A DNA stretch of 63,857 bases, counting the filler, from Kipferlia bialata (taxonomy: Eukaryota), in the NCBI GenBank assembly GCA_003568945.1. It is 6 parts of 6 records of this genome, joined end to end, with 100 filler letters (N's around TTAATTAATTAA, not from the genome) between each part and the next. Parts side by side here need not be neighbours in the genome. Positions count along the whole stretch, not along the records: positions 23,013 to 34,412 come from BDIP01001243.1; 5 more parts are not named here. The stretch is one strand, 5' to 3'. This document shows, in pieces, positions 8,349-43,442 of this stretch (positions are counted from its first letter, which is position 1; each line of letters begins with the position of its first letter). Under the pieces are notes generated by a model. That model did no database searches. It was not told the origin of the DNA and worked only from the letters and a program-made list of their open reading frames with translations. The position numbers and the translations under genes were made by a program.

Positions 8349-11347
8349 CCCATATATACTGATACGTCACCACTGACCTTGATATCTGCCCCCACTCCCT
8401 CGTACTGTGCCATCTGGGCAGTGAGGCGCCTGAGGGGTGAGACATAGCATAAGAAGGCTCAGGATTCAATTCCTATCTCAGTCAATTACTATAGAACAAG
8501 CAACGTACTCGAGAGTATCCACTGCCTCTGATAGTGAGTGTGCTGCCCTGTCTGCCTCAGGCAAGGCTAGGGTGTACATGTCGGCATGCCCACTCTCTCT
8601 GTCTCCCTCTGCCTGTACCAGACCCCTCTCCCTCAGGGTGTGGAGGAGGGACCTGGGGTTGGTTGTATAGGAAGAGAGAGAGAAAGAGAGAGCGAAAGAG
8701 AGATTACCCCGGATGTGGAGGAGGGACCTGGGGTGGGGACATGTATCAAGAGAGAGAAGAGATACACATATAAATGAGAGCATGTACCTATACTGATGTG
8801 CACACCTCAAAGAGAGAAGAGAAGAGATAATATATAGGAATAAGCCCTTGCTGCCCCGTTTGTGTCATGACTTGTCAGGAGGACTCTATGTCAGAGAGAG
8901 AGAGAGTATACCTGTACTCCTGGGCACTCCTCCTGGCCCGTGCTGTGTTCCGTCTCTCTCTCGCCGCATGCTTCTCCTTCCTGTCCTCGCACTCCCTGCC
9001 CATGTCTCTCTCTCCCTCTGTCACGACACTCAGCGCAGATGCCAGGTCGGACAGGGCCTGGTTCTCTTGATGCTGGGGTTAAGACTAACTAACCATTCGA
9101 TTTAGTAAAATTGAGAAAGTGAGAGAGGGAGATGGAAGAAGAGAAAGAGATACACAGGTTCTCTTGCAGCTAGGTGTGTGTGAGAGACTAGTTGCAGTGG
9201 TACCTGACGATCTTTCTCTGCCTCGAGTGTCAGTCTCTCTCTCTCCAGGCCTATCATAGAGGACTCACACTGGGCTGGGGGTCAGACATATACATATACT
9301 ACAGTCATATCGAAGTAATGGTGACTATACTCTCATACAAATGATGTGCCACACATATGTGTAGACAGTACAATTGTATATACCTAGCACTGCCTGGACT
9401 GCCCTGTCTGTGGATGTGGACAGACCCACACATACATATACTAGTAGAGTATAACTATGTAATTAGTAGTAATTGTATATATATACATACCCAGCACTGC
9501 CTGGACTGCGCTGTCTGTGGATGTGGACAGACCCACACTGACTGCAGAGGCAGAGAGGACAAGGGCCTAGAGTGAGACAGGTGTATATATAGATAGAGAG
9601 AGAGAGAGAGAGAGATGCACTGACAGCAGAGTCAGACAGGACTAGTGCCTGTAATCAGATGTGAATTAGAATATCGAAAGCGAGAGATGCACACATATAC
9701 CTGCTTAGTGGCCTCTGCAGATTATTATATTTACATTATGCTATATTGTATTATTGAAATTATATATAACACTATATATTCACCTGCTTGGTGGCCTCTG
9801 CACTAATGACATCAGCATCTGTCTCCCCCTCTCCCTCTCCACTCTCTGACATATCAGGCACTGACACTGCCCCATGGGAGAGAGAGAGGGAGAGAGCCTG
9901 TATCTCCTCCATCAGCATGGCACTCTCACTCTCCAGAGAGAGGGTCTCTGCCGCTCTAGCCTAATATGTGAGAATGCACGTCATATGACATACATACATA
10001 TGTAGAGAGAGAGAGAAAGAGTACTCTCGAGAGAGAGGGTCTTTGCGTTCCTGGCCTAGTTTAGAGATGAATCATACTGACGCAGAGAGAGGGTATCTGC
10101 CCTGACATATGAATGCAATCAAGATGGTATTATGCCACTATACCCACACATTATACCCACCTCGAATGCCTCTCCCTCCACAGACAGGATGCCATCGGCC
10201 CTGGTCACACAGGCCTGGGGTGGGGGATATATATGTATATATATAGAGAGAGAGGCGGGGGAGAGAGAGAGATTCTTAGCTTGCCCTGGTCACACAGGTC
10301 AAGAGTTAGGGGGGTGTATATACAGAGAGAGGGGGAGATAACAAATAGCCACACAGGCCTGGGGTAGAGGACCACCTCTACATACATAGGAGGGGAGAGG
10401 TGGAAGAATTGAGATAAAGCATAACGAATATGTGAGGAAAGGAAGGGAGGGGAGGGGGTCGAGAGAGAGGGAGAGAAACTTCTTAGGTCATTAGTGCACT
10501 GTCTCTCGATGGTACATAGGACATTAGGCGGCACACGAAGTACGAAGACAGAGAGATGATTGAGACAGAGAACGGTACCGGTACCGTTATTGAATACAAA
10601 GTAGTGCACACATGACAGCTAGTCATGCACCTAGTCAGTAATATCAGAGAGCTTAGTAACAATATAAAGAGTGCAAGAGGATATCAGAGCACCATGAGCC
10701 AATACTATATATACTAGTACACTCTGGTACCGGTATCGGTACTGGTTTCTATACCTGTAATAGCTGTACCGTGGTATCATCTGCCTCCACACTCAGTGAC
10801 TCCACATGCACACCCAGCAGAGACGCAGCACCAGAGAGAGCCTCCTGCATTGTAGGGGGGTGTAGTATGGTGTATAGGAAGTGAGCGTACGTTAACTACT
10901 GACCATTTTGTGTCACTCAATGAACCCTCTCGCCCGTTCTGAGTTGATTGACATGCGTCTCTAAGGTCGTAGGTCAGTATAGGGGGAGGACTGTCAATAC
11001 ATACCTCAACTCCCTCCGTATCGCTCAGCAGACGGTTACCAAGAGCTCAGTTGGATAAGTGGAGGTATATTAAATAGTATGGATCCTTAAGGATAGTTTG
11101 GTACCGGTACCGATCCATGTACCATCACTTCATTATCATTTTGTCCTTACCTCAGTGACCATAAGGGATGTCCAAGCTCTTTGTGCCCCTCCGGTCCAAA
11201 GTGAGTGGCACCAGGGTTAGATACCAGGTGGGAATGGTACATATATACACTGACTTACATGTGTATAGGGGATTTGCCTCTCCTTACTTGGACCTACATA
11301 CCCTCCAGCGCTCCAAGACCTAGACATCTGTCCCGCACTCTCACCAT
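7950..11347 (-). CDS. multi-exon coiled-coil hypothetical protein
   Basis: Exons such as EALSGAASLLGVHVESLSVEADDTTVQLLQ, ARAAETLSLESESAMLMEEIQALSLSL, AQCESSMIGLERERLTLEAEKDRQ and TARRVLETETQRALDVQ with canonical splice sites; ends approximate. Confidence 0.55.
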
Positions 11348-16026: not shown

Positions 16027-18654
16027 ATGAGTGAGGCTAGCCATGCATTGCAGAGCCGTCCCCGGACTGTGGACGGGGGTGAGTGAGGGAGTGTGTCTGA
16101 CCCTCTTGAGGACCCAGTCATCCTGCCCCCCTCCTTAGTGGGGGAGAGTGAGGTACCGAAGGGTGGGGCTGAGGCTGCCCCTGCCTCCCCTGAGGTCCCC
16201 CAGTACACCAAGCCCCGTGCTGTTGTGATGTCGATGGTGGCTACTATGCTGGGGTCCAGTCTGCTCAGCCTGTCATACGGGTACTCACAGGTAGGGGGAC
16301 GGGGAGAGAGAGAGAGAGAGAGAGAAGTATGCGATACTATACCTTGCGGTAACTAATACCTTCTACGATGGTGGTAGGAGGTACAGGAAGTGATTATATG
16401 ATCCATCCAATCATCCAATCAATCACCAGTCTCCTCACCTTCAGGCTGGTATCATCGGTGGTCCTCTGGTTGTGATCTTTGCGGCAGTCATCTGTGCACA
16501 GACAGCCATCCTGATTGTTAGGTACCAGTGTGTGTCTCTTACCCCAAGATATGGGACGTCTGATCTGTCTCTCCTCTCCCTTCTGTTCTGACCCCAGGAC
16601 AGGCGATGCCTACACCAGCGAGACTGGCCATGACGCAGTGGACTTCCCATCTGTGGCTGCACACTTTGTCGGGAAGTGGTACGTTCTCTCTCTGTATCCC
16701 TCCCCCTCCCCCTCTCACGCCATAGGGCCATTGGGGCAGTATTATATTATCAGTATCACATCTGATACTCTCTCTCTCCCCCCCCCCCCTCTCTCACCCC
16801 AGGGCCATTGGGGCAGGCAGTCTGGCCTCTCTGATTGTCCTGACAGGGGCATATATGGCATACTTGTACGTCAATCATTCAGTATCTGGTGTATAATGAC
16901 TGTACTTCCTCTCAGTCTCTATTTGTCTGTGGTCTATGATGTCTTCCCCCCACTCTATTACCTCTCTTTCCAGCTTCCTAACCCCCTCAGTGTATACATT
17001 GCCTCCTACCTGGGCAGTATCGGGACATGCTTCGGTGTGGAGGTGAGCATGATCCCATACTATCCTACTATAGTGGTCTGTTGGTATTCTCTTGTCCCCC
17101 CCTCACCATCCAGATCCCCTCCTACGTGTGTGTTGGTGTGGCCATTCTGACCCTTGGCGTCCTGTCCCTCCTTAGGGATGTGCGTAGACTGGTCTCCATA
17201 GCCCAGATGGGCATAGTGTTCACGGCCATCCTGTCTGGGGTGGTGGTGTTGACAGGCCTCAGGCACATCCCACAGCAGACATGCAGCGTCAAGGTATGAG
17301 GGTATGTATATACATATAGAGTGTAGGATATGGATACCCTGTCCCACCCCCAGGGCTATCTGTTCCAGAGGGGCGTGGCCAAGCTGTTTGGCATCACCAT
17401 CAGCCAGTTCATGCTGCACAACCTGCTGCTAGGTATATGGCTATTGTGGTTATATGGGTGTATGTGTATATATACTACTGATACTGATACTGATCACTAT
17501 CAGCCAGTTCATGCTGCACAACCTGCTGCTAGGTGGGTTGTAGTGTTATATCCGGTGTCGGTGTATCTGTATTCTATTGTCCCCCCCCCCACTCTAGGTG
17601 TTCTGAAGGGCACCCACCCCTCTGCCCGCACTGGCATCCTGAGGGTCACTCTGCTCTGTCTGTGCCTTGTCAATATGACTGTGGGCATGGCTGGATACAT
17701 GGGGTACAGGTGGGGAGGGGGGTGATTTACAGTGTACCATAGTTCTCTCTATGCATCCGGTGGGGCTCCTGAGACCCACTGGGTATGTTGATTGATAGTG
17801 ATTCTCCTTCTGTTCACATGCGTACTCCCTTATCATCCCTGATTCAACCTCTCACCCAGGTGTGAGGGTGTTCCCCAGAACTTCAGCGAGCTCTTTCCCC
17901 ACACCCCCATAGGCAGCCTCATATACGTCATACAGCTAGGTACGGACTGACATGAGTTATATTGTGTACACTGCACCATACTATCTCCCCCCTATACCAG
18001 TGTACATTGTCTGTCAATATTTGTACCCAATATATCCTCCCCGTTCCCCTTATCAATCCACCCCCAGTGTACATTGTGTCTGTGTTCCCTCTGCTGCAGA
18101 TGGTTGTGAGGGACAACATCGGGGGCCTGTACTTCTTCTACACATCCATGCGGGCTGAGTACACACCCCTCCCGGAGTCCTTTGAGGAGGAGGAGAGAGA
18201 GGGAGAGGGAGAGGGAGAGAGGGATGGCGACGTGGGAGACATTAGAGTGGAGGGTGGTGACTGTGGTACTGATGCCGATGCCCCCTCAGATGCTGAGCAG
18301 CCCAGAGCACGTACCCAGAGGGTTGATATCCTGATATCCGTCGTCATGCTGTGTATGGCGTCATTCATATCCCTCAAGTGCCCACAGGTCGGGGATATTC
18401 TCGGGTACGGCAGTGTATCTATTTGTATATGACTCTATCCATACTTCGGGTACCGAAATTGCTACTCCACTTGACCCCCTCTCACCCCTAGCATCTGTGG
18501 TGCAGCAGGTGGCCTGATCTACGTGTTCATCCTCCCTTTGCTGTGCTACAGGGCACTGGAGAAGAGGGAGCACAGGTGGAACCCGATGAAGGCAGTTGGC
18601 ACAGGCGTGCTCATACTGATAGGGGGGCTAGGGCTCTGTCTGCAGGCACTATGA
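16027..18654 (+). CDS. amino-acid transporter, AAAP/SLC38 (Aa_trans) family
   Basis: VVMSMVATMLGSSLLSLSYGYSQ|AGIIGGPLVVIFAAVI..., LSLLRDVRRLVSIAQMG, VGMAGYMGY, VGDILG|SICGAAGGLIYVFILPLLCY; about 10 exons. Confidence 0.85.
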
Positions 18655-21452: not shown

Positions 21453-21573
21453 CCTGTGATGGGTGTATAGAGTATGTATATAGAGTGAAAGGTCCTAAAC
21501 CCTTGATTCACTTGCTCAAACATGCAGCCCATGAGAGCACAGCAGACGTCTGCTCATTCATTGATCGTTCAGA

Positions 21574-22787
21574 ATGGCCAAGGCAAAGACTGCCCAGCAC
21601 CCCGACAAGCCCAAGAGGCCTGCCTCAGCGTACGTGCCTACCCGCACCTTTCTTCACCCTCATACTCAATCCCCACTCACCGTTCTGCGCCTTTTAGTCT
21701 TTTCACATATCCTTTTTCGGCATCTTACTGTACTGTATTCTCCTAGAAGCTCTAAAGTGATCGTAATTGCCTGTGGTGTGTGTTGTGCTACCAGTATATA
21801 CTCTACTCTTACCCCCAGTTACATCCTGTACATGAAGGATGAGCGTGAGAACGTCAAGAACAACCACCCCGACCTGCCACCCAAGGAGATCATCCGTGTG
21901 GTACGTCATTTCTGCCTCTGATCTCTGTGTATAGACCAATTACCGTGCTTATAGGGTGATGGTGTAGTCTTTGGCCGTTTTGACCTGGTATATGTCTGCA
22001 TCTCCCTCACCCCCAGGTTGCCCAGCAGTACAAGGCACTCTCTGAGGCAGAGATGAAGCCATACGTCGATGCTTACGAGAGGTGGGTTCATCTGTCCCAC
22101 CTTCTTTACTCCTATCTTCCCTATTTCAATTATGATTAACTCAATCCCCCTCTCTGCCGTCTGCCCTGAAGGAGTGAGGCACACCCAGTATCGTCAGTAT
22201 CCCACTTTGTATATATGAGATGACCTCTACTGCATCTGACCCTCAGGGCCAAGGAGGACTATGACATTGCCATGGAGGAGTTCTTTGTGAAGCACCCCGA
22301 GGAGAGGGGCGCCAAGGGAGGTAGGGCCAAGTCTATGCATCCATATCGAGATGACTGTCACTTTTTCTCTAATTCCATACCCCCCCCCCCCCTAACACGA
22401 GGGTTGTCTGCAATACTTCCTCACTATCCTCCTGTCTCTATCCACTCTGACCCCCAGCCGGAGGTGCCAAGAAGGGCGCTGCCAAGAAGGGCAAGGAGGA
22501 CGGGTGAGTATGTTGTATTATGCTATTTGCTGGATACCACTACTCTACTCCACTGACCCATCCTGTCCCTGACCCCTAGGGATGACAAGCCCAAGAAGGG
22601 CAGGGCCCCCACGGCATTCATCCTCTTCAGCCAGGTACATGGATATGTATATGAGTATATACACGTATTTGTGTTGGTGATATGTGCTCTATATTGGCTG
22701 GACATACCATACCCACCGCCCCCCTCACCCCAGGCCTGCAGGAACAAGTACAAGAAGAAGCACGGAAAGTCTCTTGGCTTCAAGGAG
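21574..22787 (+). CDS. HMG-box protein with two boxes (HMGB/Nhp6-like), 3'-partial
   Basis: MAKAKTAQHPDKPKRPASA|YILYMKDERENVKNNHPDLPPKEIIRV|VAQQYKALSEAEMKPYVDAYER|AKEDYDIAMEEF...; second box KPKKGRAPTAFILFSQ|ACRNKYKKKHGKSLGFKE. Confidence 0.9.
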
Positions 22788-22859
22788 GTGCGTCAACATA
22801 TATCAAGAGTGCATTACCATTCACTTTCACTAGCTAGAGTATATATTGATCTGTTTGTT

Positions 22860-22908
<49 letters not shown>

Positions 22909-23097
22909 AGACNNNNNNNNNNNNNNNNNNNNNNNNNNNNNNNNNNNNNNNNNNNNTTAATTAATTAANNNNNNNNNNNNNNNNNNNNNNNNNNNNNNNN
23001 NNNNNNNNNNNNGGAATGGGGGAGGGGCGCGACCCCCCCCCCCCCCCCCCCCCCCCCTCCCATGTGACTTGTATCTATCCCTCTCTCTCATGCCCAG

Positions 23098-23812: not shown

Positions 23813-26117
23813 ATTTATATAATATCTGTATGTCCAGCTGGCAAGGTTTGTTGTGTATATACACTATATGCACAGCTCCATGCACATCTCTATGCTTAGG
23901 CAGGTGGCCATATGTATGTTTGGTATATATTTCTGCCCCTAACCCCCAGGGAGAGGCTCCATCTACCTTCATGATCAGATATATACTCATATGTTAATAC
24001 TTCTCTGTTTACATAGATACATACCCATGTCCCTAACCCCCAGGGAGAGAGACATGGCTGCGGTGTCACCCATAGCGGCACTCAACTCACACGTCGGTGG
24101 GTTGTTCCTGTCTGATACGGATATACATATATATATATATGTATATAGATCTATATTCACATACATGTCTAACCTCAGCTGTTCTGGACCACGAGGGTGT
24201 CACCATCTATGCACCACCCAGCTATGCAGGTAGGGGCACATACATATCTAAGTACAAATACTGTTATATATACATGTTCATATTCTGGTGTTCCCTCTGC
24301 TGGGTACCTGTTTCGGTCTTTAGTTATGCAGTTTTGGATGCAGATGGCTCTATTCGTATTAGTATCATTCTCTCTCTAGTGTCACTATTCATTTGAGGTG
24401 TTGTTTGTGTTTTCGATGTATACATCCTGACCCCCCAGGTAGAGTGGCCCTCCCCTTCTCCCCCACCTGTGTGTCTGCCTCTGCCCTACCATACATGTAT
24501 ATATATAAATATATATATACATTGGCACTCTATATATGATATCATATGCTTATATACCAGGCCGTGTCTCCCTCCCCTTCTCCGCCACCTGTCTGTCTGC
24601 CTCTGCCCTACCCATACATGTATATATATGTGTATATATACAACTATACTATACACATCTATGTATATCATGTGCTTATATTTCAGGTAGAGTGTCCCTC
24701 CCCTTCTCCCCCACCTGTCTGTCTGCCTCTGCCCTACCCATGATGCCATGTGCGGCACTGGGGGGGGACGGCAGTGCGGCAGTGGTAAGCTTACCCACGT
24801 CATCATCACCAGAACCAGAGGTATATACATATATTATAATGTAGTATACTATATAGTACATATATGATGCCATGTGTGGCACTGGGGGGGGACGGCAGTG
24901 CAGCGGTGGTGAGACTGCCTAGTGCAGCTAGTCCAGAGCCTGAGGTATAAGGGAACCATATATACAGCATAACATATAGTATATGCATAGTATACCTATC
25001 TACACTTGTTGGCACTGGAGGGGGGATGGGAGTGCGGCAGTGGTGAGACTGCCAACACCAGCCTCACCTGAGCCTGAGGTATACTATTCTCTCATATGTT
25101 TATTGTAAGTATATTGTTGGGACATTATATTTACAACTACCCCCTGCTGAGTGTGTGCCCCTGTCCCGTTGATCATACATGTAGATTGGCATAGTATAGT
25201 ATATGTAGTGTCTCTAATAGTGTGTAGTAATGCACTCTTGGTTACATATGTATATATATATGTTGCACTCTTACCCCAGCTTCTGAGTGTGCGCCCGTGT
25301 CCCTTTGAGGCTGTGTCTGTCTGTCCATCTGTGCATGGGTGCATAGGAGTGTCCATGGAGGGAGAGGTATCCCTACCCTCACTCACTAGAGAGACAGGAG
25401 ACACATCCACAACCCCTAGGGTATCCATAGGGGGCATGGGCAGACCATCCCTAGCATCCATCCCCCTACACCCTCTGTGTGCAGTGCTGGTAAGGGGCAG
25501 GGATAGCTATGTCGTGGACCCCAGAGTGAGGGGTTGTCTCTCCCCCCTGCCCCTCTCCCTCTCCCTCCCTGCCTATGCAGCATGTGGGGGAGGTGCTGAT
25601 GGTGTGCGGGTATGGTGTGCCACTGCCACCTCTGTCCTGTCTTATGACATACGGTCACCCAGGGAGTGCATGTACAGTGTGGAGCACCTCATGCCTGGTC
25701 CACCCTCCATGGTATCTGCCACCACCACCACTAGAAGGGGTGATACCCCTGTATCCATGGATGTAGTGGCCTGTGGGGGTCTGATGGGCAGTGCCGTGGT
25801 GTGTGTCAGGGGTGGCCAGGCCTGTAGGGTGGCAGGGGGTGGGGGTGTGCGGGGTATGGCTGTGGGGGTAGGTGGGGCAGGGCAGACCGGCACCACTCTA
25901 TTCACAGTCAAGCAGAAACCATCTACCACTACCACTACTACTGGTGCATCTGGTGCATCTAGTGGTGTGGATAGACCCCTGGCTGCATACTTCCAGAGGG
26001 TGGACCTGGTGCCCACAACAGTGCTCACAAAGGTATGTGCATGTGGATACTATAAGCATATAATATATATAGTATTGTGTGTGTGCCCCTATGCCCACAC
26101 CCCTATATCACCTATTG

Positions 26118-26162
<45 letters not shown>

Positions 26163-27711
26163 TGATATACCAACCCCAGGTTGCCCAGGAGCACACCTGT
26201 TCTCTCACTATTTACCTATGTGTCTATTAGTATCAGTCTATATATATATAAATATAGTATCCACCCTATGATACCCACCCCAGGTAGCCCAGGACCACAC
26301 CCACGACGATATAATATCTTCACTTCTGCATTAGTATCCTATCAAAGCCTNNNNNNNNNNNNNNNNNNNNNNNNNNNNTTCTGCATTAGTATCCTATCAA
26401 AGCCTAACCCCAGGTTGCCCAGGAGCACACCCATGATGAGGGTGATGGCACCTACGCACCCCCTGTGCCCCCACCCGACCTGACACCCCTGGCCCCACAG
26501 CCAGAGCCCACAGACATACCCCCAGTGTACAGGTACTATTAGTGCAAGTATGTATATATGTATATATCTGCATGCCCTTATATACACTGATGCGCCCACA
26601 GACATATCCCAGGTGTACGGGTAGCAGTGTCAAATTCTCTCTCTCCCTCTCTCTCTCTCAATATTTATATATAGTACTAGTTTAGATTTACCACTTGAGT
26701 GTATTCACATTCTGATGCACCAGGGATGTGGGTGACATCAACGACTGGCTGCCCGAGGAGGCAGAGCCTACCACGAGAGGGGGTAAGGTGACGGAGAGAG
26801 AGAAGAGACGCAGGGCCAAGGCAGAGAGGGCCAGTCGGGGTGTGCTCTACAACGATGCCTCCCTCGGGTCTATCTTGGATGACAGACTGGGGGTGGGAGA
26901 GGGGAAGGAGGCTAGGGAGGAGAGGGAGAGGAGGGAGAGGGAGAGTGGGGGTAGTGGTGGCGTAGGTAGTAGGGCCCCTGCCCCGCCTCCCGTGCAGACT
27001 GGGCACTCCCTGTTTGACATGCTTCAGACTGCCTCTCTCACTGCATCCCAGTTGTCACAGCCTGTGGTGGCCAAGCCTAGGCATACTATGCCTGACGTGG
27101 GTAGACAGGCCATGTCACAGCCAACACGACCACAGGAGAGAGAGAGGGAGAGAGAGAGGGGCCAGTCCCAGGCTGCCCTTGGCTCTCTCCGGTCCATATC
27201 CCAGCTGGGTGGGATGGGGGGTATGGGTGGGGAGAGAGACCACCTCAGTACCCTAGGCGGTATGGGTATGGGTATACCCACCAGCAGTATGGCACCTGTA
27301 CCCCCCTTGGCTGCCTCCTCCCAAGTACCCTACACGTCTGCCTCCCAGCTACCACCCATGCCACACAGTATGGGCATGGACATGCATAGTATGGGCATGG
27401 GTGCTAGTATGGGGGATGACAATAGGAGTATGGGTAGTGGGATGGGTATGGGACTTGGGTCTCAGCTGTTCCCAGACACAAGTGGTTCCTTTGGAGGCGG
27501 TGCTGGTGGTAGTGCCTTCCCTACAAACTACGGCGCCCCTTCCTCCTCCTTCAATGACCCCTTCCCAAGCTTCGGAGGGGGAGGGGGAGGGGGAGGGGGA
27601 GAGAGTGTGTATGGTGGAGGTGGCGATGGGGGGTATGGGGATGGCCCTGATATGTTTGGGTCCTATGGCCAAGGGGGGGACAGCGATGACAGCGGGGATG
27701 ACTATGTGTGA
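23098..27711 (+). CDS. beta-propeller-like protein with Gly/Met-rich tail; possible TAF1C/Rrn6 homolog; 5'-partial
   Basis: Large exon 25280-26032 contains LASIPLHPLCAVLVRGRDSYVVDPR and ATSVLSYDIRSPRECMYSVEHLMPGPP; terminal exon ends at TGA 27711. Confidence 0.5.
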
Positions 27712-27909
27712 GTCCCTTCCTTCAACTTTCCCTCTCTCCCTTTATATACCTTGTATCTAGTGATGTTGTCTTTTAGTGTTTAAAGTGTGTGTCTCTGTGT
27801 ATATATACCGCTATGGTAGAGTATGAATGGTGATATAGTAAATCTCGTTGGCAGACGTCAATCTATTGAGGTTATGTGTACACAGTCGTGTTCATTAGTG
27901 AACTGGAGA

Positions 27910-27940
<31 letters not shown>

Positions 27941-27943
27941 TCT

Positions 27944-30900
27944 CTAGCCCAGTCTGTATCTGGGTGGGGTGCGTCTACTGGCCACCAGGGGTATCATGTC
28001 TATGGTCAGAGAGACAAAGAATGTACAATATTAATACTATTATGTATCCGAATGTCAATATGCGTCACAGGGCTCCAGTGATACCTATATCGTCATGCCC
28101 ACTACTAGACTTGCTGCGTGTGTGCTTGTGGCCCTTCCTATGTCTGGAGGCACGGCCCCTGGGGTGGGAACAAGTAGGAAATACCATATCCAACCAACCT
28201 GCGTATATATATGTACGCATATGCGATGAATATCTATATGCCCCTGGCGGTTATGTGACAATATGTATATATAGATAGATTTAGGCTATGATACTATATG
28301 TATTAGAATTTCTTCATATCGCATTGCCTGGAGGCACGGCCCCTGGGGGTTGACATATAATGAAAGTACACTATATCTACACTAGTAGCACATGTACATT
28401 AGTAGGTGTACCTCATCAGAGCCATGTCCCTCCGTGCCTTCCTCCTCTCCAGATGGGCTATGACACACACATATACATAGTATACACCCTCCATATATAC
28501 ACAGTATACAATAGTATACCCATATATCCCTCACCTCATGAGTGCCATATCTCTCCTTGCCTTCCTCCTCTCCAGATGGGCTATGACACACAGACACAGA
28601 CACAGGATGCCAAGGCCCTAGAGTTAATAGAGAGAGGGAGAGAGAGAGAGAGGGTGGGAGATACTACACAGACACAGGCACAGGATGCCTAGACCCTGGG
28701 GATTAGACAGAAGTCGGGAGATGGGGGGGGGGGGGGGTACTCCTACAGATGCACATACAATCAAACATACAATCCCCTGTACCTGCATCACCACCACGTA
28801 AGATATGTAGTGACTGTCTCTCTCTCTCTCTATATATATATACATACATGTATAATAATACACTCTCTACCCATGTACCTGCATCACCATCATGTCCGAT
28901 ATGTACTGGCTCTTAGCCTTCTCCTCCGTGTCCCTCTGGAAGTACAGACTGCACCCCAGGATGAATATGTTCTGGATGCACTGGGAGAACCCTATCGCGT
29001 AAGATATACCACCAATCGAGTAAGAATATACGTATGTAGCATTGTACATGCACACCTACTAGAGATGGCACTGGCCCTGCTATGCATGCATCCACCACCA
29101 GCATCCACATGCCCACGGCATAGGAGCCAAGGGCTATGCCTGGGGGGGTGAGGGACTATATATATATATATATATATATAATGCATATACACATATTGAT
29201 ATATATATATATATATATATACATGCCAACGGCATAGGAGCCAAGGGCAATGCCTGGGGATAAGAGACATACGCAAATACACCCACACTCACACATATAT
29301 AGGTATTGAGACATACATCCACAGCATAGAAGCCAAGGCCAATGCCTAGGATGGAAGGAGAGTGTATCAAAAATCACAGCGTAGACATGTCTGACCATAC
29401 ATACACACACACACACACACACTATAAATATATCTTCATATACACACACACCTAATAGGCAGATATATTTAAATACGTATATACCTAATAGGCACAGTGC
29501 CACCACGAGCATGGCAAACCTGGCCTCTGGGTGATCCGACACACCAGCTATCATAGTGGATAGGGTGGACACAGTAGTGGACACAGCATCAGTGGTGTCT
29601 GTGGGTATGGAGTCATCTGGGTAGGTGGTGCTGAGCCACCAGAGGACAAAGCCTAGAGAGTCAGGAAGGGGTTGTAGGGAATATTGATACAAGAACCTAT
29701 GAATTATTGGCCAGAAAGTGAAGTGAAAGTGGTAGGGAAATAATGTGGCGGATTGACACACATGATTAAGGGATCATCGATACAAGCCGTACCTGCGAGT
29801 GTCTGTGCCAAGCACCCAGCCATGATACACTATATGATATACATATATATATATATATATATATCACTATATGAGTATGCAATCTAAGCTATACCTGCGA
29901 GTGTCTGTGCCATACACCACATGTACCCTATACATATACTATATAGGTGTATACCATATGTGTATACTTGCGAGTGTCTGTGCCATACATGTATGATACA
30001 TGTATATAATACTTCATAGCATGTAAGTATATAGAATACATTGTATATGAGTATATACCACCTGCGAGTGTCTGTGCCATACATACACTATACATCTACA
30101 CACAATATACATACATTATATGTACAATATATATGAATAGTGTGTACTATCTGTATACAGTACTTGCGAGTGTCTGTGCCATGCACCCAGCCATGATATA
30201 TATCATGCATAGAGTATCCAATGCATAGTATAGTATACATAGAATATACTAGTGTATACTATACCTGCGAGTGTCTGTGCCATACATACACAATATGTAC
30301 CCTATACATATAACATATATGTGTATAAACTACCTGCGAGTGTCTGTGCCATGCACCCAGCCATGCACACGGGTATCAGTTTGCCACGCTGACACATGAT
30401 GCCTGGGGTAAATAGGTAAATAGGTAAATAGGTAAATATGTGAATATATACACATACTGTTATAACATGACTGGTATACACTCATATACACTCTGTGTAT
30501 ATACCTGCCACGCTGACACATGATGCCTAGGGGTGGGAGGGAAGGTACATTCATATAAACACGTGCAGAAGCACATATTTCAATAATACATGACAAAGTA
30601 TATGAATACCTGCCACTCCCATGCAGCCTATGGACACCACTATCAGCACAGCCAGGTAGTAGTTGGCACTGGTCCATCTATCCTGGGGGGGAGAGGGGGG
30701 TATAGAGAGAGAGATAGTAGGGGGAGATGTACTATGTGATTGTACCTACCTTTATGGTCCTTGGCACCTAGTTGAGCACAGTCAATGTATCATATTTACA
30801 ACTATAACAACAGTGTATATACGTAAAATAGGTACCCACCTGCTTGATGGCCGTTGGCAGCATGTTGAGCAGGGGGATGAGGCCAGCATAACAGACAGCG

Positions 30901-33900
30901 GTGCAGAAGGTGGCAATGAGGAAACGCCTGAGATGAGTGGTGTAATGAAAGGGAGAGAGAGAGAGACCAACGGAGAGAGAGAGAGAGGAAGTGATGCAGA
31001 AGGTGGCAGTGAGGAAACGCCTGAGATGAGAGAGAGAGAGAGAGAAAGATTGAGAGAGAGGGAGAGAAGGAGAGAGGGAGAGGGAGAGAGCAGAAAGTCA
31101 CCGGAGTAAGTGGTCAGTTGAGGGTTATGAACCATGCGTGTCTATGAAATGCAACAACATGTAATACTGATTCCCCACCTAGTGAGACACCTCTTGAAGG
31201 TGGCCCAGGTCAGACGTTGGCTGGGGGTGAGAATGGAGTTCATTGCAATATACATATATGAATGTATACTATCTCATATCTCTTGTACCTAATAGTAGTG
31301 GACTGGTAGTCTATCCTGCTCATATGCTAATAGATATACATGTATATATTAATATGTATATATATGAATGTACAGTATGCATACCTGTTAGTGGTGGACT
31401 GGTAGTCTATCCTGCTCTGGGTAGGGACATGGATCTCTCGGGTGCTCACTCGGATGACACCACTGGAGTTAGAATATATACATATATACATATATATGCG
31501 AATACTAATATATGGTGAACACACACATGCATAGAGTGAAGAGTGGTGCTGACTCATCGGATGACAACAGTGGGTATGAGGGGGCTGGAGCGATACACAT
31601 GTACATACAGACACTGTAATACCTTGTCCTGATGTGGTCGTGTGCCCCTATGTGCATGACAAACAGCATACATACCTATATACAGTATAGAGTATATGTA
31701 CTACATATGCAGAAGAAGAGTGAAATACATGCACTTACCTTGTCCTGATGTGGTCGTGTGCCCCTATGTGCATCACAAACAGCACAGCGGCACAGACAAC
31801 GGAGATGGCACCTGGAGTTAGACAGTGAATGTGTGTACGTGTAGACACTACGTGTGGACACTACTAGAAATGACGATATAGAGTGTTTATATACATACAC
31901 TATCGTCTATATACACTGCCCCTACCTGACTCTCTACATATATATCACATATAGTATATATACTGTATCCTACCTGACACGATGCAGAGTGTCTCCTGCA
32001 CCTCTATCACCCTGATGCCCACACTGCTACCCCCCTCACTCACTATGCTGTTGGTGATGGCAGGAACCAGGAGGAGCATGCACAGCTCGCCTATACGGGC
32101 ACCTATACCTAGGGTGAGTCAATACCACATACAGACACATATACAAATATATAGAGAGAGAGGAAGGCACCAGCAGGAGCATACACAGCTCGCCTATACG
32201 GGCACCAATACCTACGGTGGGTTAATACTACACATGTGTGAAAATATGTTGTCTATCGAGAGAGTATAGAGCTCGCCTATCCTGTTAGCACTAGACTATT
32301 CCAATACTGACTAGATAAATGGGTAGAGGATGAGGATCACTGGGAAGGTGGTATATGACCACATTGATTTATGTGTAAGTATACCAATACTCATATCCAT
32401 GTAATCATATCTGTCTCCACCCTACCTAGCAGCATATATATATATATGGTTTCACCCTACCTAGCAGCATATNNNNNNNNNNNNNNNNNNNNNNNNNNNN
32501 NNNNNTTCACCCTACCTAGCAGCATATATATATATATGGTTTCACCCTACCTAGCAGCATCAGCGTCAAAGGGAAAGTGGTATACCGGAACCACTTAGCC
32601 TGAGTGTTAGAGGCAGAGATAGGCACAGAGACAGACAAACAACTTGGGGACACACTCCTAATACTAATACCAACATGTCGCGTCACGAAACTCGAAAATT
32701 ACATGTGCTGTTACAGTTTGGCGTACCACGAATGCAAACATGAGTGCCTGCTCTGCCTCAGACGCTAATTCGCGTTATACTCAGCAATATATCACTACTA
32801 ATTCGCGTACCACAAATGCAAACATGAGTGCCTGCTCTGCCTCACAGGCCAGCCCCATGAGGAACCTGCCGGCCCTGAGGACACCCTCTAGGGGGTTAGA
32901 GATACATATAGATATATAGATATATATATATATTGTGTGTGTGAGAGAGAGAGTACCATGAGGAACCTGCCAGCCCTGAGGACACCCTCTAGGGGTTAAG
33001 AGGTATAGATACATATGCATGCACATAGCGAGACATAGACCATAGGACACCCTCTAGGGGGGGAGATATATATAGACACGTAAATTTTAATAGAGAGATA
33101 GATAGAGAGAGGAAGAAAGTTACTTACCTGCCCTGTTCTTGGGGTCTGCCCCTATGCTCTGGCAGATGACACCCACAAAGTTACTGGGGTTAGTATGAAT
33201 CCTATACATGTATATAAGATATTTACTACAGCATGTATAGTTACAGGAGGGAAAAATAAATACCATCCGTACATCACCGTCAGCAGCAGGATGACTGTGG
33301 GGCACGTGGCCTTGTCTGCCAGTATGCCACACAACAGAGGGAAGAGGGTGCCTGCCAGGGTGTAGGAGGTGAAGAGTCGCCGGAGGGCATCGGGGTCATT
33401 GCCTAGGTTAAGGGTGTAGATGGAGAGAGAGAGAGATGTACAAATTGCTTCAAACCCTAGAAAGCCCGATAGGAGGTAACTGTAATATTTAGAGAGAGAG
33501 GGAATATCCGACTGTGTGTTACAGGACGACACTCACCTACTGACACCAGGAATGAGGAGCATGCCGTTGGGGCCTCGTACTCAAAGTATACATGACATGG
33601 TATACACTTTGTATATACATTAGTACTATACATACTCTGTATGTATTGCTATCCATACCTACTGACACTAGGAATGAGGAGCATGCCGTTGGGGCCTCGT
33701 ACTCAAAGTAGTTGAACATCATGATGCAAAAGAGACAGGAGGTCACAATGACTGTGAACTGGGGGTGAGTAGAGTTATATATAGAGAGACAGAGAGACAG
33801 AGAGACAGACAGAGAGAGAGACACACGATGCAGAAGAGGCAGGAAGTCACAATGACTGTGAACTGAGGGTAAGAAATAGGAGGGTATATGTATGAATGAA

Positions 33901-34040
33901 TCTATACATTGAGAGAGAGAGAGTGAGAGAGAGTGATGCAGTCACGAAATAAACAAATAGATAGGGGACAGAGAGAGAGCCAGAGAGAGGCATGATGCAG
34001 AAGAGACAGGAGGTCACAATGACTGTGAACTGAAGGTGAG
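27944..34040 (-). CDS. Major Facilitator Superfamily transporter (MFSD1-like), many short exons
   Basis: MMFNYFEYEAPTA, LFTSYTLAGTLFPLLCGILADK, VLRAGRFLMGLACE, AKWFR, GARIGELCMLLLVP, GIALGSYAVGMW, GLGILCLCLCVIAHLERRK; 5' end uncertain. Confidence 0.8.
29791..30365 (-). repeat. array of six truncated copies of an exon end plus donor (TGGCACAGACACTCGCAG|GT) downstream of the real exon
   Basis: On + strand ac(c/t)tgcgagtgtctgtgcca occurs at ~29791, 29893, 29966, 30060, 30162 and 30263, and at the exon itself ~30332. Confidence 0.9.
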
Positions 34041-34937
34041 TGTATATATATATATAGAGAGAGAGACAGAGAGAGGGAGAGACAGTCACGAAATAAACAA
34101 ATAGATAAGGGTTCCTGAGGACACTGATCTGAGCGCGAGGGGGAATACACATAAATGAGTATATATAGAGAGAGAGACTGCGAGACAGATAGAGAGACAG
34201 ATGAGAGATGAATAGGGTCACAATGAGAGGGCAAAAGACAGAGGCACGGGCTACTAAGAGAGCAGTAGGCAATATGTATCAGACATGTCTCTCTGACCAC
34301 TGTGGGACGAGAGAGAGTATAATAGAGACAAGTGGATAGATTGGAGACAGAGTGTGTATATACACTGTGTGGTGGGGGGGGGGGGGGGGTTTTCCCGGGG
34401 GGGTCCCGGGGGNNNNNNNNNNNNNNNNNNNNNNNNNNNNNNNNNNNNNNNNNNNNTTAATTAATTAANNNNNNNNNNNNNNNNNNNNNNNNNNNNNNNN
34501 NNNNNNNNNNNNTTTTTCCCCCCCCCCCCCCCCGCCCCCCCCCCCCCCCCCCCCCAACTACTCATTTTCATAAGCATATATGTATTCAGCTCCGTATACA
34601 ATTCCTACCAGTTTTGATGATTGTTACACTCTTCCCTTCAATGAATGATCTCTGGATGGTTATCAAGTGTGTGTTTGACAGTGGTTGTATATATATTTGA
34701 AGTGTATATACCTCATACCGTATCTTGTTAAGCACACGGTACACTTATATGCTGGCGGGTGGGATATGGCTCTGGCAGCTGATATATGTATGCATAGTTT
34801 CTATTTCATATTGTATGCACCAGATACTCTTGGCCCAGGGTGTCCTATGCCGCTAGATGGGGCATGTCTCTTATTCATGGCATGTGTATCTGGGTATATA
34901 TTCATACATATGTAAACAGTACGTATTCTAATACAAG

Positions 34938-36078
34938 GGTCTTCTATGCCGCTGGGTGGGGCATGTCTCTGACGTGTGTGTCTGCATCACACCTAGTGAC
35001 TGAGCCTGCTCCTTCTATACCCACTACTGATGCTGATACATCAGAGAAGGAGGGGGAGAGACAGCCTGTTGGAGATACAGGCAGAGAGAGGCAGACACCT
35101 GAGAAAGTGCAGCAGGGAGAGAGGGGGAGAGAGAGACAAAGACCAAGAGAGAGAGAGACAGAGGATGTGAAGACTACCCCTAAGCAGCCTGGTCGGCTGT
35201 TCTTCAAGGGAGTGCCCCTGCACTATACAGAGACAGACGGTACGTACATGATACCAATGCATATGTGTGTATAGCACACCACTCTATTTTTGCGGGGGGA
35301 TTGGTCTCTCTCGCTGTTGCAAGTAGCAGCACAGTATCTATTATGTACTGTCATCCACCCCTGCCATAACAAGGCCAAGTGCTTCTCTTGCATCTGACTG
35401 TCAGTGCGGAATATGATCCGCACCTTCATTGAGCGTGAGACCCCCACCTCCGAGGTGGAGGAGAGGGCATCTCGCATACTGGGGGGTATCAGCAACTTAG
35501 GTGACATCACTATCAGTAGCAGTATACGTATATAGTAACACTACAATATCTATATTGGTACTAATACATCAGTTGTACAAGGTATGGTCTTCGACGGGAA
35601 GGGCAAGGCCTACTAGTATTGTCATAGTACAACATATACTATTGTGATAGTGCTATAGATACTAACCCACTAGTCGTGCAGGGCATGGTCTTCGACAGGA
35701 AGGGCAAGGCCACCAACAGGAGGGTGAGGAATGGCAGGGTGGTCATGAGGTGGCAGAAGGGGGGGGAGATAGAGAGAGGGGACAGTGCACAGGAGGCCAG
35801 GGTCAGTGAGGGGTGCCACAGAGCAGGGGACATATACTTCAGGGACAGGGAGGTGGCTCAGGAGGCACTGCTCGTGATGAGGTATATATACCCACTTACA
35901 CCCACTTCACTATATCCATACCACCCAGATGTCAGCGTATATGTCAGTGTCGTGAGTATACCCCCCACCCCAGGTACCAGCGCATAGGCGATGCCCCCGA
36001 TGCACCTGAGCTACATGTCATGTGGTGTGATGCACACAAGACAGCAGACACTAAGGTATATACGGTATACAATATATA

Positions 36079-36112
<34 letters not shown>

Positions 36113-38631
36113 TAGTATAGACACACAAGACAGCTGACACTAAGGTAGCTATATTTACATGTTGTATTCGATATATGCCGAGACGGTATATTTTGGGTTC
36201 AACGTTATGTATCCACATACCCCCCAAGTCGGACACACTAAGGTGGGGGCGCTGATGGATTTCAAAGCAGTCGATCCGTAGCCATACCCCCATAATGTCA
36301 TCTCCCCACACATATTCACCTCTAGGGCAATGTGTTTGTGTCCCAGCTAGACCCCAATGTCTCTGCCCGCCAGATCTGTCAGGCCTTTGAGGGGCATGGC
36401 GGGGTGGTCTCGGTGAGGTAGGAATGGCCATATACGTACCATTTTTGACTGCTATACAGCACGCTATTAATATTTGTATATATATCATTCTCCCATAGAC
36501 CTTATCTCAGGGTGCTGCGCAGGTACTCTGGCATCCTGTGGGGTGCCTATGTACAGTTTGAGAAGGCAGAGGAGGCGGCCAGGGTGATAGAGACTGTCAA
36601 TGGAACAGTAGTGCTAGGTATCAGAATATATATATGTACTCATACATGACACCAGGCACAGAGGTCATGGTTATACTGAGACTGATTGTATCAGTATCAA
36701 TGTATATATATATGTACTCATACTGACACTAGGCACAGAGGTCAAGGTGGAGGCATATGTACCCACGCAGCAGAGGGTGGGGGGGAACAAGAAGGTATTC
36801 ACCGAGAATACTATGAAGGAGTCTCAATATATATTTTTGAGACTTGCTCTCTCTTCCTTTGTATATATAATGTATTGATACTCACCCCTAGGAGTGGGAC
36901 AATGTATCAGTATCTGTATCTGTATCTGTATATATGAATCTATGAGTCTAATCATCTCTATTGCGTATGTATTCTCACCCCCAGGAGTGTGACAATGTCT
37001 TTATCGACAACCTGCCACCTGGATTCACGTCAGAGGGTGGGTGGTATTGTGTACATGAGTATACATATCACTGTAGTGTGTATCACTATGCATTGTATTA
37101 TTTTTTATTATGCGCCTCAGAGTGTGGGTGGTAGTGTACATGGAGAAGTGTCACTGTAGCGTATGCCCCTATGTATAGTGATATTATACATCTCAGAGGG
37201 TGGTGTGTGCATATGTATCACTATGCATCAAGCAGAATAGTAGTATATGTTGCCTGATACCAGCTCTAAGGGTCCTCCTAGAAAAGCATGTGGGACCTAC
37301 CCTGTCAGTATATGCAGGGGTCGACACAAGGAAGGTATGAACTTGGGGAATCCACATGTATAGGATGTATATACTGCGTTGATGCAAGTATCATTACACA
37401 TACCCACCCCAGCATATTGGCCGTGTGTTTGGTTCTGCCAGGTTTGCCAGTCATGAGGATGCAGCTAGGGCCCTAGACATAGTGCCAGAGGTATTAGATG
37501 TAGATATATAGATATATAGAAGTATGCATGAGTATGCATATACACATGAGGATGCAGCCAGAGCCATGGACATAGTGCCAGAGGTAAAAGATGTAGATAC
37601 ATAGAGACATTTAGTATGCCTCTTTACACATTTGTATATATATGTGTGTGAATGATTCTCTTTATTCATAAGGATATATATATGTGTAATTGAACATAGG
37701 GTTAGGGTCGTATGCATTCTGGCAAAGGTATCACTACTCTTGGGACCGATTGGAGCCATCCCATGTTTATAACCTTCCAGATACCCTTGGAGGATGGCCA
37801 GACTCTAGTCTGTTGTCCCCACAGGGCAGCAGCACAGAGACAGCGAATGAGCCATGTATGAAAGAGTACTTCTATAGATTGTATATATATATATATTATA
37901 CAGTGGCAACGAGACAAGAAGAAGTCTACTGATGCTTCATTCAATATTGACGGAGTATGTATGACGCTGAATACACATATTGACACAGGATGAGGGAAAG
38001 GAGAGAGAGGCCCTCTTCTACGACTCGGGGAGGGGTGTGTTTGTGGTGGGCATAGGGTATGTAAAGTGTAATGTAATGTATATATATTAATTATAGTATA
38101 TATAATATCAGGTTTGGCCCCACCAAGGCACCCGTGGTCAGACTCATGACTGAGGCACTGCAGGGGTGTGGGCCAATTACCATGGCTGCCCTCTTTCCCA
38201 AGAGGAAACAGAGGCCAAGGATGGGCATAGTCGTCTTTGAGAGTCCGGAGAGTGCCACCAAGGCTATCGAGGTTGGTATATATTCTCTCGTCGTTGGTTT
38301 GTAGTGACAGCAATTGATATTTCTGCCCTTGCTCCCATCGTGTGTAGATGTGTTACTAACTGCAGACCCTGGATGGCACACTGATCCCCTCCGTGTGTTA
38401 GTGTCTGGTGTACTATAGCACTTTGGACATTGTATTACGTACTCTTATACTATAGTACTATAGACATGTTACTAACTCCAGACCCTGAATTGCACCCTGA
38501 TACCCTCCCTCAACATGAGTGCACCTGTCCAGGTGTGCAAGGCCCAGAGGTCCTGGTTTGACAACCCAAATGCCATCACCAAGACGGTTAGGAACTGCAC
38601 CGTGACACTTAATGGAGGGAATGGTTGCTAG
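34938..38631 (+). CDS. four-RRM RNA-binding protein, divergent PABP-like without MLLE/PABC tail; 5'-partial
   Basis: RLFFKGVP, GDIYFRDREVAQEAL, GAYVQFEKAEEAARVIETVNG, NVFIDNLPPGFTSE, FGSARFASHEDAARAL, GIVVFESPESATKAIE|TLN...VQVCKAQR; stop 38631. Confidence 0.75.
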
Positions 38632-40456: not shown

Positions 40457-40995
40457 ACTAGATGGCCAAGGTGGAAAGCCTTAGGGTGACTGTCCACTGA
40501 AAAAGCGTGTAGAGCCTACACCCTTATCTACCAAAAATGTCGATGCATGTCTGCAGTTAACAATCCAAGGTGTTACCAATACGGTCCCCACTCCAGCACT
40601 GATCTTGGCATCTCTTTAGATGATCTATGACGCATCATATCTGTGTATCCATCTACTACACCCCACCCCGACTCTGGGACTGTGACCAGCAGGACATATG
40701 ATATATCAATGATGTAATTTAATGATGATATATCATATCATTTATGAGTGTCAATGTAACTATGCATCTATTACAACCAGTATCTACCCCGACTCTGGGA
40801 CTGTGACCAGCATGATGTTGGTAGGCCTCCCTGACCCACTGACCCTGCACAGCACCACACGCATCACATGGGACGGGANNNNNNNNNNNNNNNNNNNNNN
40901 NNNNNNNNNNNNNNNNNNNNNNTTAATTAATTAANNNNNNNNNNNNNNNNNNNNNNNNNNNNNNNNNNNNNNNNNNNNGTATAGATATATATACA

Positions 40996-42586
40996 TGTCG
41001 GTCCTGGTGGCAGCATGCGACACATTCAGGTACAGTTAGATGGGTATATAGATGGGTATATATAGGTGTGTATGCTAGTGGCAGCATGTGACACATTCAG
41101 GTATGCTCACAGTGATTGGTGTAACTATATCATGTATTCCTACATTTATGTAAAATTGTACATGCCCCTCACCCCTTAGGAGTGGTGCCGTTGAGCAGTT
41201 ACAGAAGCACTGCGACAGACTCAAGTGTGACCTGTACCAGCAGGGTGGGTGGATATGTATACCTACATATAGAGTAGAATATATATATCGATAGATATCG
41301 GTTTTTGTGTGACCTATACCAGCAGGGTGGGTGGATAACAGTGTGCATCTACATATACACTCATGTGTATATGTGCATCTTGTTGATGGAAGAGTCTGAT
41401 GTCAATACCACTGGCCCTGTACCCCCCCCCCCTCACCCCTAGGCTATGGCAAGGATGCCGCTCTGGTTGCCAGATCTGCCATTGTCAAGGCCAGCCAGAA
41501 CAAGCAGGTGGGGATGCATGGAGTCGGATATGTATATATGAATATGAATATGATACTGTATACCACTATACTGATCCCTAGGACGTTGTGCTCATTGACA
41601 CTGCCGGTAGGCTCCAGACCAACTCCCCACAGCTGCACGCACTGGCCAGGTATATGTCTGTGGTGGATATAGTATGTATACATCGAGTCGCAAGTCATGC
41701 ATGTGTGTGTATATGGTTATACCCACACCCAGGCGTGTGGCCACCATAGTATACCCATAGTGCATATCAATCATACATATCCACCGATATATGTTGCACC
41801 TGCATTTGTATATTCCCACCCCCAGGCTTGTGGCCACCAACCAGCCTGACCTTGTGCTGTTCTGTGGCGAGGCCCTGGTAGGCAATGACGGCATCGACCA
41901 GCTCCAGACATTCAACAGGTACAGATGATACAGATTGTGTATATGGTGATAGATATAGATATCCAAGATATCAACTCCTGTGCTCTCTATGCTTCCAGAC
42001 ATTCAACAGGTGGGGTGGGGTATATATACACTGTGCGTGCGTAGATGTATAGATATGGGTATAGATAGATGTTACTGAATATGTAGTACATACCACTTAA
42101 CTACCCCTGGTCTCTACCCCATTCTCATCCTTCTCATCCCAGGGCTCTCATTGACTTCTGTCCTCCCAAGCTGCAGCACCACGTGGTGGACGGAATCATA
42201 CTCACCAAGGTACAGTGTGACACTGATATACGAGTACATGTTTAGACATATGTGTATATGTATCTATATATATATACCCCTCCCTCCCTGACCCCAGTTT
42301 GACACCGTGGGTGCCAAGACAGGGGCTGCACTCAGCATGATATACAGCACAGGTGGGTGTACTATGTATATGTATGTTCATATATATATGTGTGTGTATG
42401 TACACTATAATATATATACAACACAAGTGGGTGTGATGTATTTATATATATATATGTATATATAGTATAATGTATACGTCACACTGACTGCCAGGCAAGC
42501 CCATAGTCTATGTGGGTGTGGGCCAGTCCTACCCAGACATAGTGCCCCTGGACGTGGACTTTGTAGTTGATACCCTGGTGGGCTAG
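40996..42586 (+). CDS. SRPRA: signal recognition particle receptor alpha subunit, NG GTPase domain; 5'-partial
   Basis: [97 protein letters not shown]; the GEALVGND and TKFDT motifs are eukaryotic SR-alpha type. Confidence 0.93.
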
Positions 42587-43285
42587 ATGGGTGAACAATA
42601 GACCGTAGATGGATACATGGGTGGGATTGTGGGCTGGACTGTAATTGTGGGGTATAAACAGGGTGTATAATATATCATTACCAGAGTGTGTGACCATTAA
42701 TTACCATGTTCACAAGGGTGGTAACCTACAACTCAGTGTATATGTGATATGCAAGGTAATGATTTGAAAGCGTCTGCCACCAAGTAAACATGGTTGGAGA
42801 CGTGACTCAAATGAATGTGAGTCAGCATGCCCTTCAGTCAGATATGATAGATATGATAGATATGATATCTGAGATATCCGTTGATGTCTTCCTGCACTCT
42901 ACTCCACAGCGGTGTCCTCTCCTCTGGGCAATCAACACAACCACTAGATCTACTAATGAGCTGGCATATCAGTCTGATATGATATCAGATGGTGTCAAAT
43001 TGATATTGTTAGGTGTTGATTCTGAGTGAACTCTCCGAATCTCCGACAGAAATCTGACTCTGCTTTGGTAATCGTATATATATGCTCTCCACTCTTCTAC
43101 ACCTTGCTATGGCTGACTTAAGAGTGTGTCCTGAGGTTGGATACGGCATGAGCGAGGAGTCTCCACTACTGGGAATGCCAGTTGAGGAGTCAGACTCTAA
43201 CTTAGAGCAGAACATGACATCAAGACTGTGAGTTCTGGTAGCATGTTGGATATTCTATTTTTAGCCTTCTCGTGTCTTACCTCAG

Positions 43286-43442
43286 GTGCCCATGGACCAC
43301 CTGGTGTGCCACCCACCCTAAGGAGTTCTCTGCCCTACCTATCAAGAAGAAGGCCGGGATGAGGGTCATACTGAGGATGGAGGCGGAGTTCGCACAAGCC
43401 ATTATGAGTGGGAGGTACCAGGTGCCTACGGGCTTGAAGTAG
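43286..43442 (+). CDS. isolated putative terminal exon of an unknown gene or relic
   Basis: ttacctcag acceptor followed by CPWTTWCATHPKEFSALPIKKKAGMRVILRMEAEFAQAIMSGRYQVPTGLK*; no in-frame upstream exon resolved. Confidence 0.25.

Follow-up and report, generated by a model that had tools for sequence, protein, structure and literature searches.

The window, the whole stretch of DNA analysed here (63,857 nucleotides of Kipferlia bialata, GCA_003568945.1), consists of six unrelated scaffolds joined end to end and is rich in introns. The spacers between the scaffolds (11411-11510, 22913-23012, 34413-34512, 40879-40978, and 52369-52468) each contain 44 N, a 12-nt linker with stops in all frames, and another 44 N. 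Apart from the gene under study, the plus-strand genes at 40999-42352, 34938-38628, 14585-14990, 21570-22790, and 16445-18653 comprise an SRP54-type GTPase and an RRM protein (both weak Pfam hits) and what we take by eye to be the end of a DEAD-box helicase, an HMG-box protein, and an amino-acid transporter. On the minus strand, the region 58506-62685 contains long open frames (965 aa and adjoining ones) of low complexity, which are rich in Glu/Ala and have many internal repeats.

The focal gene encodes an MFS transporter and is 5'-partial (Table 1). One of its exons matched a single protein, P0001, at 98% identity. This protein is named 'major facilitator superfamily protein, partial [Kipferlia bialata]' and scores 55.7 bits against Pfam MFS_1 (PF07690; E 5e-15; curated cut-off 33.4 bits). 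Greedy mapping of P0001 divided one exon across an echo, as the partial exon copies found in flanking introns are called here; setting this exon at 32887-32811 gave the 18-exon model.

The focal exon is 83 nt long, in phase 0, and bounded by AG and GT. It encodes GLGILCLCLCVIAHLERRKARRDMALM(R), which lies within P0001. On either side of it the intron carries a copy of one of its halves, and the initial annotation had described both copies as differing from the exon in synonymous codons, three upstream and five downstream. Both counts proved correct. The upstream changes are GGC>GGT, CTT>CTA, and TGT>TGC. The downstream echo proper occupies 28469-28412, its GT lies at 28411-28410, and its changes (AGG>CGG, AGA>AGG, GAT>GAC, GCA>GCT, and CTC>CTG) all fall in the last 8 codons. 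The halves were also said to meet at a TGTGT tract and to rebuild the same protein, and they do: they span exon offsets 0-29 and 25-82, share the 5 nt TGTGT, and would jointly encode an identical segment. The total is 8 silent and 0 replacing differences, including the first-position CGG/AGG change. These differences are located in codons 1, 2, 6, and 21-26, and the middle 14 codons are identical (post hoc P=0.0014). Read in frame, the 48-nt spacer between the upstream echo and the exon runs into a stop. The upstream echo may end in a GT (28667, minus strand) that could splice in frame to an AG at 28578, in the intact exon, or at 28455, in the downstream echo; either putative splice would lose three residues and is absent from the spliced contig described below.

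Table 1. Position of the focal exon, its half-copies, and the other exons whose flanking half-copies meet. Echo, partial exon copy in a flanking intron.
Feature	Position	Strand	Evidence or remark
MFS transporter gene, 5'-partial	27947..33758	-	18 exons mapped; 23 echoes within introns
Intact exon, used; 16th of 18 mapped	28617-28535	-	P0001 mapping; spliced contig of run X2
Branch-like motif and AG acceptor of upstream echo	28696..28706	-	sequence; passed over in spliced contig
Upstream echo, 5' 30 nt of exon; 3 silent, 0 replacing	28695-28666	-	sequence comparison
48-nt spacer with CT tract, branch-like motif, and working AG acceptor	28618..28665	-	sequence; P0001 mapping
Working GT donor and 65 nt of TA/TG-rich intron, from exon to downstream echo	28470..28534	-	
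Downstream echo, 3' 58 nt of exon plus own GT; 5 silent, 0 replacing	28469-28410	-	
Second exon with meeting halves	9386..9648	-	exon 9566-9491, echoes 9648-9618 and 9431-9386; hand model
Third exon with meeting halves	24439..25078	+	exon 24687-24820, two upstream and two downstream echoes; hand model

Assembled contigs were available from two runs of one sample, of which X1 is DNA and X2, by guess, RNA. Contigs of this kind drop rare variants and rare RNA forms. A 1,706-nt X2 contig passes over GT-AG introns and contains the intact exon with 0 other letters. In this contig the 28990-28878 piece is joined straight to the 28616-28534 piece (record positions 173/172), and on the downstream side the joint is 28157-28534, with the downstream echo left out. 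Over 27700-32460 the contig omits the echoes, the focal pair included (one sample, contigs only). RNA had been proposed as a place to look for the echo codons; this one spliced contig holds the intact exon alone. Similarly, the DNA did not yield the haplotype with an intact recoded exon that the initial annotation had envisaged: across 27700-32460 the X1 contigs contain no other letters, with a depth of 385-450 in the pieces listed. Because the two assemblies agree letter for letter over the listed pieces, the data suggest that the focal region is now homozygous or nearly so, with the caveat that X1 may be the source sample of the window itself.

One X1 contig (27952-28464) includes the downstream echo at a depth of 449.8. 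Another (28435-28587) runs in cis from the downstream echo through the intron into the 3' half of the intact exon at a depth of 447.1, and both have 0 other letters. A haplotype-specific piece would be expected at about half of this depth, and merged haplotypes, a possibility raised from the start, are therefore unlikely for the downstream echo. The upstream echo lies outside X1 contig coverage and adjoins stretches skipped as repeats.

In the window, 85 exons in 13 gene pieces were modelled. The MFS gene was modelled from P0001, and the other 12 pieces by hand from splice signals and open frames, without RNA support and mostly picked for showing repeats. Weak Pfam matches agree with the modelled frame in the RRM exon and in the SRP54-type exon. 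Self-comparison uncovered short repeats on the same strand, spaced at 70-130 nt, all through the intron-rich parts. A fixed search of the flanking introns detected 65 echoes on 41 of the 85 modelled exons, in five of the six scaffolds (in the sixth, 2 exons were modelled). A control search of exons against the introns of other genes gave 0 matches in 510 comparisons. Echoes are a feature of the whole window and are not peculiar to the focal exon.

The polarity of the echoes is strict. Of the echoes, 32 lie upstream and start at the 5' end of the exon, 30 lie downstream and extend to its 3' end, and 3 do neither; 62/65 thus reach the exon end beside their splice site. Most keep splice signals of their own (AG in 28 of the 32 upstream echoes, GT in 29 of the 30 downstream echoes), and these sites score near working ones. 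Such polarity and retained signals are what would be expected where a segment is duplicated in tandem and one of its breaks falls within the exon, the other within the intron. The median offset between echo and exon is 104 nt, and the median intron length is 240 nt with echoes (n=37) and 93 nt without them (n=35). Beyond about 20 nt, the intron flanks of echo and exon have near-background identity, even where the exon part is identical (0.28-0.33 beside identical echoes; 0.27-0.29 between unrelated introns). A recent plain duplication does not predict this loss of flanks beside identical exon parts, unless introns change far faster than silent sites.

Some repeats in the window take a particular form. 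Within a single 681-nt intron, six downstream echoes of the MFS exon 30402-30334 make up an array (30286-29793, minus strand) that mixes long and short forms and is the most minisatellite-like in the window. At 33820-34130 (minus strand) the repeated unit seems to carry a complete short intron together with the end of the exon before it and the start of the one after it, and judging from its sequence it could yield an in-frame chimeric exon. Two echoes at 52096-52291 (plus strand) match their exon exactly over 26-28 nt and have a common acceptor sequence, unlike the working acceptor. At 49404-49642, three near-identical 80-nt tandem units extend across a splice donor; they represent a young duplication whose intron part is intact, unlike in most echoes. 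An exact 53-nt repeat flanks a 33-N gap at 32418-32560, with a similar case at 26324-26405, and this is probably a gap-filling artefact over a real short echo.

The initial annotation proposed that one version of the focal exon is nested inside the other. The halves do meet, as described above, and the same was looked for elsewhere in the window. Nine exons have echoes on both sides, and in 3 of the 9 (the focal exon, 9566-9491, and 24687-24820) the inner halves meet within 5 nt; the null mean is 1.0 (P=0.06). At exon 9566-9491 the halves overlap by 3 nt, and the upstream echo has 4 silent and 1 replacing differences. At exon 24687-24820 the inner pair of echoes overlaps by 2 nt; among the downstream echoes, the outermost differs from the exon by 11 silent and 3 replacing changes over 59 nt. 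Two downstream echoes of the latter exon (24864-25078, plus strand) share their last five residues with it, with codons that differ, including a TCA/AGT serine, which would suggest at least three coding versions of one exon. Two independent events could also have come to share the focal site, because the TG tract is an obvious microhomology partner for TG-rich introns. Homology between the focal spacers and the counterpart introns was not above background (10/70 and 25/70 others score as high), and the microhomologies are therefore identified by eye only. Two separate events at the same TG tract appear to be the rather more probable history of the focal exon, and a single nested insertion is a plausible one of lower probability.

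Eight silent changes out of eight had been put forward as exceeding neutral decay, with a dN/dS of about 1 as the implied neutral value. For a dead copy beside a constrained exon the expectation is instead ~0.5, because silent sites diverge on both lines and replacing sites on the copy alone. Tested against such a dead copy, with ~21-25 silent and ~63-67 replacing sites, the focal 8/0 pattern has P=0.0005-0.0015, or 0.02-0.07 once multiplied by the 41 echo-bearing exons.

Pooled over the window (65 echoes), there are 82 silent and 54 replacing differences. Divergence is 44/1300 at 0-fold and 52/345 at 4-fold sites, which gives a ratio of 0.225, away from 1 and also below 0.5 (bootstrap by exon 0.145-0.36; P=7e-5 vs 0.5). 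Leaving out the focal exon gives 0.244, and counting only echoes outside the MFS gene gives 0.220. In the strictest subset, with the focal and 24687 exons removed, ends trimmed, and sites counted once, it is 0.279 (P=0.014). It stays under 0.5 for each of the four bases (0.14-0.34). Transition bias was rejected as a cause of the silent excess, the 4-fold differences being 26 transitions and 26 transversions. Simulated dead copies passed through the same detection had medians of 0.51-0.55 and in 0/600 runs reached 0.225. A simulation with a prior coding phase had a median of 0.22, which matches the observed ratio.

Sites covered by at least two echoes allow changes to be assigned: echo-private changes are found at 14/75 degenerate and 11/154 non-degenerate (zero-fold) sites (P=0.012). 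Amino-acid changes in echoes tend to be milder (P=0.07). The bias is uneven, with 5 silent and 7 replacing changes over 18 echoes in the scaffold at 40979-52368 and a ratio of 0.30 (P=0.04) in upstream echoes alone. No pooled gradient from the splice end to the inner end was observed (35/232 vs 34/244 degenerate sites), and the run of 14 identical codons in the focal case is therefore not general. From these codon patterns, the echo sequences likely coded for part of their history. Of the divergence that separates the copied exon parts from the present exon, about half would have built up while these parts were still translated; in the focal case this share would be almost the whole.

Several other explanations were weighed. 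The echoes may be plain tandem duplications that span a splice site and were dead from birth, with the bias resulting from protection of the exon and the focal 8/8 being a lucky tail. The polarity, with upstream echoes at the 5' end and downstream echoes at the 3' end, needs no extra assumption in this case. Moreover, 14 of the 65 echoes are identical to their exon and 11 have replacing changes only, the focal P is 0.02-0.07 after correction, and the echo-vs-echo ratio is 0.47 (0-fold 17/342, 4-fold 10/95, non-independent pairs), near its lower bound. This is also the reading given for the mirages of amphioxus in the available part of PMC3087553. However, dead copies cannot bring the ratio below ~0.5, and the observed value was not reached in any of the 600 simulations; young copies should also have near-identical flanks, but these are hardly more alike than unrelated introns. 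Duplications dead from birth are thus unlikely as the general explanation. The pooled ratio is also reproduced if the echoes were dead from birth and working exons change at their silent sites about threefold faster than echo DNA, for example through exon-focused repair synthesis or allelic conversion (median 0.27; 34 of 150 runs at or below 0.225). The changes should then be on the exon side, but three-way degenerate sites show 2 exon-alone and 14 echo-private changes, and the intron DNA beside the echoes is highly diverged, not slow. We regard fast-changing exons as improbable, more so than plain dead duplications and than the use of both copies considered next.

Both copies might have been used in cis, either as mutually exclusive whole-exon duplicates which later lost their inner halves or through minor-isoform use that persists. 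Silent-only divergence would follow directly, the splice sites of most echoes are intact and score close to working sites, and rare forms would have been dropped from RNA evidence made up of one contig set from one sample. But 0/64 echoes on fully modelled exons are whole exons with both sites, and the sole echo that reaches both ends sits on an exon cut by a scaffold edge. An acceptor-like motif precedes 0/30 downstream echoes, and a donor-like motif follows 13/32 upstream echoes, no clear excess over the background of 0.32. Offsets modulo 3 are flat (19/21/22), the frame is kept open at just 3/62 echo sites, and the focal echoes are passed over in the spliced contig. Use in cis is accordingly quite unlikely. 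By far the least probable is an assembler that merged two haplotypes or stuttered at short repeats. The assembly is a short-read draft of a species reported as diploid (available part of PMC5874029), the exact repeat by the N gap looks gap-made, the upstream echo has no contig coverage, and X1 may be the source of the window; against this, a separate read assembly contains the echo-intron-exon contig at the depth of its neighbour and with 0 other letters. Three further readings were rejected. An ancestral intron that split the exon at TGTGT, followed by a cDNA insertion, is incompatible with the intact exon having its own intron flanks, and the downstream half also lacks a preceding AG. The other two were dismissed by reasoning: conversion acting only in cis, between an echo and its exon, as it gives a ratio between 0.5 and 1, and one error-prone copying event filtered by selection, given 8 silent and 0 replacing changes.

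The reading that we favour, and hold to be probable by a little, is that the half-exons are skipped edge copies of the mirage type, derived from a long-diverged working allele and not from a fresh identical duplicate. The source of the echoes would be a donor allele, and most simply divergent alleles recombined out of register. Homologous chromosomes, or haplotypes that met in sex, would once have been ~10-15% apart at silent sites, and far more at the focal exon. Fast-changing TA/TG introns would have been nearly unalignable, leaving repair or recombination to pair in exons only. If an exchange had homology at one of its ends and was closed at the other through microhomology within the intron, it could place a partial version beside a complete exon, and the only outcomes to survive would be those in which a complete exon and its two splice sites were kept. 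Gene conversion at a later time would blur the record patchily and may account for the 14 identical central codons of the focal exon. Exon definition likely picks the nearest acceptor-donor pair around a whole exon, in which case the leftovers would be harmless and decay.

The initial annotation had regarded the echo as a functional coding allele or paralog. Coding selection is likely, from the focal 8/0 and the pooled ratio below 0.5, but a second allele or paralog with the echo codons was found neither in the X1 contigs (one sample) nor in a protein search nor in a metagenome scan. The protein search returned P0001 alone, a one-member cluster, with no other relative at 283-902 aa, and the scan with P0001 gave 19 pattern matches and 0 relatives.

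Dmc1 favours the homolog and tolerates mismatches. For K. bialata, the genome paper (PMC5874029) reports that k-mers point to a diploid and that there are 124,912 introns; the strings 'duplicat' and 'heterozyg' do not occur in its available main text. In the available part of Supplementary Data 2 of PMC8516963 the species lists no Ku70 or Rad51A-D, and has four Dmc1, five Rad52, PolQ, Spo11, and Msh2 entries. The link between this set of repair genes and echo formation is a plausibility argument. Taken further, Kipferlia introns could be an archive of vanished alleles: in the absence of NHEJ and Rad51, Dmc1 and polymerase theta would mend breaks from a strongly diverged homolog, pairing exons only, and imprecise repair would insert a new exon and bits of intron, with the old halves left on either side. 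This extension is speculative and somewhat doubtful.

Were the introns such an archive, about one echo per kb would amount to tens of thousands of fossil alleles per genome, and echoes would be a main cause of long introns and would document either hidden sex or a prolonged asexual divergence. Should the silent bias hold genome-wide, thousands of earlier working alleles would be sampled in a single genome. Past diversity, recombination, and repair would become measurable near Giardia without population sampling, and mirages would gain a testable cause in exchange between homologs with non-pairing introns. Simple duplication explains neither how dense the echoes are nor why skipped DNA bears a coding signature. 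The spliceosome here appears to ignore near-consensus splice sites ~100 nt from the real ones, and the echoes call for caution when gene predictors are applied to the K. bialata genome.

In structure, the echoes of Kipferlia belong to a known kind of repeat, the mirage. Amphioxus and sea urchins are very polymorphic animals, which would fit an origin of mirages in allele exchange. In amphioxus mirages, exon boundaries on the 5' as well as the 3' side are copied in tandem together with AG/GT; the copies leave splicing undisturbed and their origin is unclear (PMC3087553, available part); further mirage genes are PGBD5 and troponin C (PMC3902484, available part). As far as these texts describe them, the two share local same-strand copies across a splice site, involvement of both exon edges, mostly kept AG/GT, undisturbed normal splicing (in Kipferlia, one X2 contig), and a similar unit size, the Kipferlia median offset being 104 nt and amphioxus mirages measuring 10-160 bp. 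Kipferlia, unlike amphioxus, is a fornicate protist, and its echoes occur on 41/85 modelled exons in five scaffolds. There are mostly one or two copies per exon and one six-echo array, whereas the mirages described are minisatellite arrays. Mirage units are there given as 81-100% alike including the intron part, but in Kipferlia the intron part is barely alignable. Copy-number polymorphism or somatic instability is a further trait of mirages.

A search limited to the open literature turned up no account of such copies for Kipferlia or for other protists. Within the same scope, which did not extend to the original mirage paper, no silent bias beyond the dead-copy level was found reported.

In tandem exon duplication with mutually exclusive splicing, neighbouring copies differ mainly at silent sites. 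The Kipferlia copies, by comparison, each consist of half an exon and a single splice site, and only the intact exon appears in the spliced contig. MMBIR/FoSTeS and the duplications or templated insertions made by polymerase theta copy a sister or a nearby identical template and produce identical copies. Like their products, the echoes are short local duplications with likely microhomology junctions, and K. bialata lists PolQ and lacks Ku70 (PMC8516963, available part). Alone, however, these processes give no silent-only divergence. Intron gain by internal gene duplication (the Rogers model; Gao and Lynch 2009, cited in the available part of PMC3087553) likewise involves intragenic tandem duplication with splice signals, but in Kipferlia no new intron results and the echoes lengthen existing ones. 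What sets the Kipferlia echoes apart from the known mirages is that their divergence is silent-biased beyond the level of a dead copy, a property not reported for amphioxus mirages in the available part of that literature.
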